64,000 nt of DNA from Candidatus Azambacteria bacterium (GCA_016213445.1 JACRAJ010000002.1:36780-100779), one strand, 5' to 3'. Shown: positions 56,367-57,260, counted from the first letter of the stretch. Notes: a model not told the origin generated them from the sequence alone. Numbers and translations are program-made.

Positions 56367-57260
56367 TTATATTTTATTTACGCTTCCGAAAATTTTTAAT
56401 TTTTCTTCAATGACTTTTTTCATCGCGCCGACTGTCGGCGCGAGAATTTTATAAGGCGTAGTTTCATCGGGAATTTTCGCCAAAGATTCTTTCAGCGCTT
56501 CGGTGAAAGCGACGCGAATTTCGGTGTTGATGTGAACCACCGACACTCCCGCTTCAATCGCGCTTTTAAAATCCGCTTCCGAAAGCCCCGAACCGCCGTG
56601 CAAAACCAGATAAATATCATTGCCGACGGCTTTTTTTATCTCCGCAATTCTGGCAATGTCGATTTTTTCCTCGCTCTCGGTAACGATGCCGTGAATATTC
56701 CCCACCGCCGGCGCCAGCATATCGATGCCAGTTTCCCGCGCGAAGCGCGCCGCCTCTTCGGGCTTGGTCAAATCTTCCGGATTTATTTCAACGACTTTTT
56801 GCAGTTTGGAATCGCCTCTCACATATCCCAATTCGCCTTCGACGATTATGCCCGGATTTTTTGATTTGGCGTATTCAACGCTTTGCTTCGTCAATTTTAG
56901 ATTTTCTTCAAACGGCAAGGCGGAAAAATCGGCCAATACGGCGTCATAGCCCGCGTCAACCGCTTCTTTTACGCCCTCAAAAGTTTTAGTGTGATCGGCG
57001 TTTAAAAATACGGGGATGCCTCCGCCAAAGGCGGATCCGCCTTTGGCGGAAAATTCTTCCCGAAACGCTTTAACAAGAGCCGCGGCTTCTTTAACGCCGA
57101 TATGTTTTCTCTCCCCTTCCGAAGTTCCGACAAAAACGGGTGTTTTAAATTCAACCGCGGATTCGACGATCGCGCGCAACGCCTCGTCTTCGGAGAAATT
57201 AAAATGTCCCAGCGCCCACTTATTAACAACCGCATCTTTTAAATAATCTTTTATAGCCAT
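56367..57260 (-). CDS. fba: class II fructose-bisphosphate aldolase
   Basis: FNADHTK with the zinc His ligands, and LVLHGGSG. The start is set at MAIKDY. It contains the in-frame palindromic insertion. Confidence 0.85.
   Translation of the reverse strand: MAIKDYLKDAVVNKWALGHFNFSEDEALRAIVESAVEFKTPVFVGTSEGERKHIGVKEAAALVKAFREEFSAKGGSAFGGGIPVFLNADHTKTFEGVKEAVDAGYDAVLADFSALPFEENLKLTKQSVEYAKSKNPGIIVEGELGYVRGDSKLQKVVEINPEDLTKPEEAARFARETGIDMLAPAVGNIHGIVTESEEKIDIARIAEIKKAVGNDIYLVLHGGSGLSEADFKSAIEAGVSVVHINTEIRVAFTEALKESLAKIPDETTPYKILAPTVGAMKKVIEEKLKIFGSVNKI
57022..57049. repeat. 28-bp perfect palindromic element (GGATCC-centred) inserted in-frame in fba
   Basis: ccgccaaaggcggatccgcctttggcgg encodes SAKGGSAFGGG, which is absent from other class II aldolases. 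It is 26/28 identical to the nifS copy. Confidence 0.9.

Follow-up and report, generated by a model that had tools for sequence, protein, structure and literature searches.

REP, BIME and REPIN repeats are thought to be mobilised by RAYT Y1 transposases. Intragenic REP dimers have been described in Opitutus terrae and Rickettsia conorii, some of them in frame in housekeeping genes, and REPs in general are GC-rich stem-loops with stems of 5–13 bp and loops of 2–20 nt, usually arranged as inverted dimers and marked by a conserved, unpaired GTAG/CGTC tag at one end of the hairpin (PMC3733652). Rickettsia palindromic elements (RPEs), in the account of Ogata et al. (2000) as relayed in PMC10969869, are about 100–150 bp long, correspond to about 30–50 residues and are confined to Rickettsia. 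GC-rich hairpin elements are also represented by mitochondrial GC clusters, fungal DHEs and sponge RHEs (PMC2800124).

In a 64-kb stretch of DNA from Candidatus Azambacteria (Patescibacteria/CPR), here called the window, a first-pass annotation had pointed to the sequence at 57022–57049 (CCGCCAAAGGCGGATCCGCCTTTGGCGG) as the second copy of a palindromic element lying in frame in a gene, the other being in nifS. The three host proteins that were searched are 100% identical to NCBI entries listed as Candidatus Azambacteria. The double-hairpin element at this locus is a real and significant feature. We propose, with a probability of about 0.7, that it is a dispersed, non-autonomous, GC-rich 30-nt double mini-hairpin repeat, selfish in the manner of REP/BIME sequences or RPEs, unusually small and untagged. 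A literature search returned no description of such a 30-nt element, the matches being cloning primers or unrelated work.

Architecture and distribution of the element

The only other match in the window at up to three mismatches to 57022–57049 is the nifS stretch at 12702–12729 (CCGCCAGAGGCGGATCCGCCTCTGGCGG). The fba and nifS copies are identical at 26 of 28 positions, whereas no match was found in 100 dinucleotide-preserving shuffles. The A>G difference is mirrored by the only other one, T>C, and both copies remain perfect palindromes; the second in-frame copy, its degree of identity and the preservation of the palindrome, all claimed beforehand, are thus confirmed. Both loci flagged are real, but three further copies had been missed. 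These turned up in a half-unit search of the window, in cysS, in the gene for ribosomal protein L25 and, in degenerate form, in an intergenic region, giving a copy number of five (Table 1).

The full unit is 30 nt long, which is exactly 10 codons, and is a perfect palindrome in fba and nifS, where it lies in frame and in the same phase in minus-strand ORFs. It consists of two abutting 15-nt mini-hairpins, each with a 6-bp stem and a 3-nt loop, and has the consensus TCCGCC-NNA-GGCGGA followed by YCNGCC-TNN-GGCNGR. The degenerate copy sits between a stop codon at 19120–19122 and the ATG of the next gene at 19072.

Table 1. Copies of the element, their host genes and other features of the window.
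Feature	Positions	Strand	Description
fba copy	57021–57050	-	TCCGCC AAA GGCGGA / TCCGCC TTT GGCGGA; peptide SAKGGSAFGG
nifS copy	12701–12730	-	TCCGCC AGA GGCGGA / TCCGCC TCT GGCGGA; peptide SARGGSASGG
cysS copy, asymmetric	32119–32148	+	TCCGCC GAA GGCGGA / CCAGCC ACA GGCTGG; peptide SAEGGPATGW
L25/Ctc copy, asymmetric	55098–55127	-	coding strand TCCGCC AAA GGCGGA / CCAGCT TTT GGCTGG; peptide SAKGGPAFGW
Intergenic copy, degenerate	19080–19109	-	TCCGCC AAA GGCGAA / TCAGCT TGC GGCTGA
fba	56367–57260	-	class II fructose-bisphosphate aldolase, PF01116
nifS	12320–13561	-	cysteine desulfurase (NifS/IscS-like), class-V aminotransferase, PF00266
cysS	31618–33018	+	cysteinyl-tRNA synthetase, host of the 32119–32148 copy
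Ribosomal protein L25/TL5 gene	54630–55346	-	host of the 55098–55127 copy
RmuC-to-NifS cluster	12320–15955	-	RmuC, RNase H-like 3'-5' exonuclease, PD-(D/E)XK (Cas4-like) nuclease, NifS
Another PD-(D/E)XK nuclease	5325–6101		
Second repeat family, two copies	46060–46160; 61152–61252		intergenic, about 100 nt
Cys-rich ORF	46693–48315	-	540 residues, no Pfam match
HIP1-like palindrome	48746–48765		single occurrence
Four tRNA genes	49532–50423	-	within about 900 bp

A structure-only scan for two abutting GC-rich 6-bp/3-nt hairpins gave four hits in the window, which are the intact copies, against 0.02 per shuffle, and the same scan of 1.09 Mb of related loci gave 150 double hairpins against 1 in the shuffles. 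The asymmetric copies, folded as DNA, form two mini-hairpins, and so does the degenerate copy. Rfam 15 at the gathering score recovered tRNAs only from the whole window, with no structured RNA, ribozyme or intron matching the element, and in permissive mode the element locus gave only sub-threshold miRNA-hairpin noise.

At the nifS copy the flanks ATTTTT and AAAAAT stretch the perfect palindrome to 44 nt (12694–12737), because the target ATTTTT^AAAAAT (the caret marks the insertion point here and below) is itself palindromic. The gene cluster from RmuC to NifS is syntenic in two related genomes, at 15–3616 of L144 and 2575–6182 of L145. That genes for the processing of DNA ends or inverted repeats adjoin a nifS with a 44-nt palindrome is probably a coincidence.

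A scan of species-representative genomes with TCCGCCNNNGGCGGANCNGCNNNNGGCNG gave at least 119 loci. Among the loci listed, most belong to Patescibacteria lineages, and the other carriers are Omnitrophota, Kiritimatiellia, Verrucomicrobiota, Planctomycetota, Ignavibacteriota, Bacteroidota and uncultured Gammaproteobacteria. In IMG/VR the element is carried by 19 contigs, about 13 of them low-GC and phage-like, and nearly all of the phage-like ones have an intergenic TCAGCC...GGCTGA variant; BLAST of the element against collections of cultured phages and plasmids gave no real match. Overall, the element has a wide distribution that takes in Patescibacteria, several further phyla and some phage-like contigs. 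Four of the five window copies are intragenic, and of the sites in other genomes about half fall within long ORFs.

In one Kiritimatiellia MAG the double hairpin is one module of a composite repeat, intergenic and about 185 nt long, of which two copies lie 1.8 kb apart, at 4569–4752 and 6390–6572 of the locus; other hairpin modules (GTCATTCCGAGCGTAG..., CTTCGACTTCGCTCAGGGCAGGCTC...) adjoin the double hairpin there, and another degenerate copy lies at about 4776–4800. In phyla outside the CPR the element seems to belong to a BIME-like mosaic.

Several other features were noted in the window. A second, unrelated repeat family has two intergenic copies, about 95% identical over the shared part, in each of which a CTCCGC-TAC-GCGGAG hairpin is enclosed by a nested inverted repeat (ATGAAAGCGTTTTG...CAAAACGCTTTCAT); the family has no Rfam match. 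Its 5' hairpin differs in an apparently compensatory way (GGCCGCC-CAGC-GGCGACC versus GCCTCGC-CAGC-GCGAGGC), and these copies may represent a small RNA or a further mobile repeat. The Cys-rich ORF encodes about 7–8 tandem modules of about 45 residues (GPGGC...EC..YC....C..FA..N.LI), together with an N-terminal signal-like segment and a repetitive tail rich in Pro, Gln, Gly and Met. In a relative (L143, 4352–5926), the aldolase/2-hydroxyacid dehydrogenase genes are separated from L25 by a diversity-generating-retroelement-like cassette that comprises an RVT_1 reverse transcriptase and a bAvd accessory protein; this cassette is absent from the window. Besides the four clustered tRNA genes, four more lie elsewhere in the window, and all eight are on the minus strand, as are nearly all genes. 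GC skew is uniformly negative, and therefore the window lies within one replichore. The overlapping GCGATCGC-type palindrome (ACGATCGCGATCGC/GCGATCGCGATTGT) resembles cyanobacterial HIP1 and is probably due to chance.

Insertion sites and the route of spread

An alignment of 15 fba orthologues identified the ten residues as a precise insertion behind REEF. The site is filled in 3 of the 120 best homologues, the other 117 being without the insertion; the three filled genes are not monophyletic, each being closer to some empty genes, and their last common ancestor is that of all 120 sequences. For nifS, 6 of 120 orthologues are filled, all at one site, and these are scattered, with empty nearest neighbours. 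The element is found in 9 of 120 cysS orthologues at four different positions, symmetric and asymmetric variants occurring at the same site, and the L25 orthologues of three related loci (L120, L121 and L142) are empty at the site of the window copy. The element is present or absent among close orthologues, and unrelated lineages carry it at the identical nucleotide. Interspecies recombination tracts carrying the insert were considered and rejected, as the flanks in L144 match its empty relative L145 and not the other filled alleles.

When filled and empty sites are compared as DNA, the difference is a clean 30-nt gain with no duplicated bases: between codons at GAA TTY^GGN in fba, and at GTT^AAA in L25. 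The close nifS pair, empty in L145 and filled in L144, has identical flanks around GCC ATT^AAA AAC, again without duplication. An exact 30-nt block enters the DNA without target-site duplication at T(T/C)^(A/G)A. In a flank logo of 174 oriented occurrences, with symmetric sites entered in both orientations, position -2 is T in 83%, -1 is T or C, +1 is A or G and +2 is A in 73–82%; the asymmetric elements also show both the T at -2 (83%) and the A at +2 (73–82%). The flank bases are already there in empty sites, and TY^RA is therefore a target preference rather than part of the element. Since 15–19 phase-0 TY^RA sites are available per gene, recurrence at a single site in fba and nifS needs more than a 4-nt target, whether further specificity for the target, stringent selection of permissive loops, or precise loss that happens repeatedly.

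A cysS orthologue in ENA ERZ4903055 (L147, 93–1523) has a 60-nt composite copy, translated as SAQGGPAQPKADQPWAGSGW. Its sequence, TCCGCC CAA GGCGGA CCAGC[TCAACC CAA GGCCGA CCAGCC TTG GGCTGG]C TCG GGCTGG, is either a second element inside hairpin 2 of the first or a local duplication.

How might a repeat of this kind be propagated? Propagation would depend on the hairpins, most plausibly through a single-stranded DNA intermediate, and the trans-acting enzyme would be encoded elsewhere. The likeliest candidate may be an HUH/Y1 transposase, either RAYT or of the IS200/IS605 type, since a double-stranded circle would need more than 30 bp and there is no duplication. The 30-bp size, hairpins at both ends, the lack of duplication, exact gain or loss, and structural covariation all constrain the mechanism and point towards such a route. 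Several observations sit uneasily with this proposal. First, TY^RA has dyad symmetry, whereas IS200/IS605 targets are one-sided, and the element has no room for the guide or the tag (GTAG) of known Y1 transposases. Second, the same stem sequence is found over many phyla, unlike the species-specific REPs. Third, the single-site recurrence in fba and nifS is left unaccounted for by the 4-nt target alone. Fourth, orientation relative to transcription shows no significant bias overall. By Pfam, no transposase, Y1_Tnp or RAYT was found in the 64-kb window (70 of 72 non-overlapping ORFs), and no autonomous partner was found. Single hairpins, considered as the ends of a larger autonomous element, number 25 in 1.15 Mb and show no consistent pairing around a gene.

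A more far-reaching reading is possible, and we put it forward tentatively: no smaller mobile DNA may have been seen so far than this 30-nt double-hairpin cassette, which has no coding capacity, no tag and no target duplication and would be driven by an unrecognised enzyme or host process. It would then spread, probably in single-stranded form, among Patescibacteria, Omnitrophota, Verrucomicrobiota/Kiritimatiellia, Planctomycetota and Ignavibacteriota and their phages, a range that we regard as equally tentative. With the same reserve, it might repeatedly strike the same nucleotide in essential genes and remodel the surface loops of their proteins.

It is rather unlikely that the spread needs no transposase at all and proceeds by template switching or short-homology recombination, in which the hairpins would stall replication and the nascent strand would use the microhomology of the T-run and A-run (TTT[element]AAA versus TTT^AAA). 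Such a route agrees with flanks that on both strands are rich in T 5' of the element and in A 3' of it, with the lack of duplication and with a window free of transposases; the composite or duplicated copy of L147 resembles slippage within hairpins, and spread across phyla would be understandable without a shared enzyme. However, two of the three fba insertions have GG as the right flank, with no A-run, and the microhomology would be only 2–5 nt. Nor does template switching obviously explain why both hairpins are always copied whole or why their stems covary.

Stems, loops and reading phase

The pairing of the stems was followed in a set of 148 elements, at the positions that the search pattern leaves free. 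Both pairs of free positions are Watson-Crick in 92.6% of cases; permutations give 60% and 43%, and not one of 2000 reaches the observed value. G-U versus C-A mismatches do not separate RNA-level from DNA-level selection here, as the search pattern had fixed one partner of each pair. Pair 16–30 is T-A in 102 elements and C-G in 35, and pair 18–28 is C-G in 70, A-T in 61, T-A in 5 and G-C in 1. The structure-only scan also contains double-compensated stems (CCCGCT/AGCGGG, TGAGCC/GGCTCA and TGCGCC/GGCGCA). Compensatory changes preserve the stems. When independent copies in fba and nifS are compared, 0–1 of 24 stem bases and 1–4 of 6 loop bases differ, as do 10–20 of 30 flanking third codon positions.

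From the symmetric substitutions between the fba and nifS copies, the first-pass annotation had concluded that the element is copied or selected as a hairpin and not as coding sequence, and it had suggested looking for compensatory variation across copies. The near-invariant stems, set against the third codon positions, uphold selection as a hairpin rather than as codons; the unit, however, is the mini-hairpin. Compensatory variation is indeed found in the stems, but complementarity between the loops is at chance. The reasoning from symmetry itself does not survive, for both differences lie in the 3-nt loops, and mutually complementary loops, which make a perfect palindrome, occur in 7 of 47 symmetric-stem elements from other genomes where 7.7 are expected by chance.

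It is quite improbable that copying and selection act on a single long hairpin or cruciform of 28–30 nt, the model behind that conclusion. The two flagged copies are palindromic throughout and, as RNA, adopt one long hairpin (-28.9 and -38.1 kcal/mol), and complementarity of loop positions 7–24 is in slight excess (0.40 versus 0.30). Complementarity at loop positions 8–23, however, is below chance. Many copies have another second stem (CCAGCC/GGCTGG, TCAGCC/GGCTGA or CCCGCC/GGCGGG) that keeps each mini-hairpin and breaks the long one, positions 3–28 and 13–18 being paired in 49–51%. The same-site fba copies also have non-palindromic loops, AGA/TTT in L121 and CAA/TCC in L122. As the first loop is NNA in most cases and the second TNN, the dyad symmetry of the element is one of form only. 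Since the stems covary and loop complementarity is at chance, it is the mini-hairpins that are conserved, not the long palindrome; the conserved object is two 15-nt mini-hairpins rather than one hairpin of 28–30 nt.

About 42 of about 56 sites inside ORFs of at least 250 codons are in the phase TCC GCC... (phase 0), on either strand. The phase-0 peptide is [S/P]-A-x-G-[G/W/R] twice over, and the other phases would give Arg-rich or Pro-rich peptides. The GGC TGA variants, which have TGA in phase 0, show a median of about 5 open codons upstream and are intergenic. Judged by eye from the flanks, the host genes in other genomes are housekeeping-like, including several tRNA synthetases and a CCA-adding enzyme. 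Taken from sequence, these patterns suggest that in genes only copies placed between codons in the phase TCC GCC survive, a phase in which the element is free of stop codons. A spliced or bypassed element would have no need for a length divisible by three, for a phase or for the avoidance of stops, which argues for translation; the element presumably stays in the mRNA and would be translated as a flexible decapeptide in a surface loop.

In the AlphaFold2 model of the window aldolase (mean pLDDT 75), the insert (residues 71–80) is modelled as a coil between helix 56–72 and strand 84–91, with pLDDT below 50 at residues 73–79. In TIM barrels, the loops that run from helix to strand lie on the face opposite the active site. 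Orientation relative to transcription has no significant overall bias: coding copies are in the same direction in 30 cases and in the opposite one in 19, and for co-directional intergenic sites the numbers are 15 versus 11. The CCAGCC subtype alone is biased (12 versus 2), which may reflect subfamily ancestry.

Could the element serve its host, either as an mRNA hairpin that sets the speed of translation or is bound by a factor, or as a useful Gly/Ser/Ala linker peptide? The conservation of stems at the nucleotide level, the return to the same site in nifS and fba and the strong RNA structures inside essential genes would fit such a role. Even so, we consider it very improbable: most orthologues, the closest ones included, do without the element, it is carried by many unrelated genes as well as by intergenic DNA and phage-like contigs, and the loops, hence the variable residues, are unconstrained. 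An intrinsic terminator was also considered and rejected, since on either strand T precedes and A follows the hairpins, which is the wrong polarity, and four copies lie inside ORFs.

Excision from the mRNA, which the first-pass annotation had thought worth checking, is unlikely given the phase bias and the avoidance of stop codons. Removal from the transcript or skipping by the ribosome, as by an intron or a translational bypass, has altogether only a slim chance of being right, as the length is an exact multiple of 3, phase 0 is favoured, stop-bearing variants are absent from genes and Rfam matches no ribozyme or intron here. A sequencing or assembly artefact, such as an adaptor or a chimeric read, can practically be dismissed: nearly all carriers are metagenome-assembled genomes, but the loops vary while the stems covary, the phase bias is biological, and an assembly error at one locus, against which the earlier note had warned, is excluded by insertions at the same site, with different loops and flanks, in independent assemblies from other samples (L121, NCBI GCA_043812515.1; L122, Logan SRR22387945; L144; L146).

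Comparison with described repeats

If the reading as a selfish repeat holds, streamlined genomes of about 1 Mb, thought to be nearly free of mobile DNA, would be peppered by a 30-nt selfish hairpin that rewrites surface loops of aldolase, cysteine desulfurase, tRNA synthetases and ribosomal protein L25. The element would then provide a natural in-frame insertion scan marking permissive loops in essential proteins, a presence/absence marker for tracking strains and populations of uncultured lineages, and a test case for very short hairpin DNA that is mobilised without duplication and recurs almost site-specifically. It would also be a warning to annotation and alignment pipelines, which should not take a 10-residue SAxGG-SAxGG insert for a protein trait peculiar to one lineage.

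Like REP and BIME sequences, the element is made of small units, here of 15 nt, that occur as inverted dimers of 30 nt, with 5 in 64 kb and at least 119 loci elsewhere; its stem and loop sizes are within the REP range, and no target duplication is reported for REPs. Unlike REPs, its unit of 15 nt is shorter than the usual 20–40 bp, and the two units abut without a spacer. The flank logo has no GTAG/CGTC tag, GTAG being seen by inspection in the flanks of a few loci at about chance frequency. REPs are predominantly extragenic and lie downstream of genes, whereas four of the five window copies are intragenic. Moreover, the same stem is shared across many phyla. No RAYT was found among 70 of the 72 non-overlapping ORFs of the window.

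With RPEs, as far as the account cited above describes them, the element shares the character of a palindromic selfish repeat that lies in frame in unrelated essential genes of a reduced genome and adds a tolerated peptide; it differs from what is given there in its 30 nt, its 10 residues and its spread across phyla. The mitochondrial DHEs and RHEs are likewise GC-rich double hairpins in a compact, AT-richer genome, found also in coding sequence, with signs of mobility but no encoded enzyme. Those elements are organellar, differ in sequence and are usually longer, and there is no evidence of common descent.

As in the IS200/IS605-derived PATEs, there are hairpins at both ends, insertion occurs without target duplication and a single-stranded intermediate is plausible. 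PATEs, in contrast, are much longer, have guide and cleavage sequences outside the hairpins and insert 3' of an asymmetric tetra- or pentanucleotide, whereas the target here appears to be the symmetric TY^RA and no TnpA was found in the window. MITEs have terminal inverted repeats and a target-site duplication and measure about 50–500 bp, unlike the exact 30-nt gain with no duplicated bases seen here.

REPs and RPEs inside genes are already known, and the element extends that kind without founding a new category. What is new is a very small, untagged form of in-gene palindromic selfish repeat, with an unusually broad distribution and recurrence at identical sites: it works like REPs, RPEs and the mitochondrial hairpin repeats, but departs from each of them in some trait by which it is defined.
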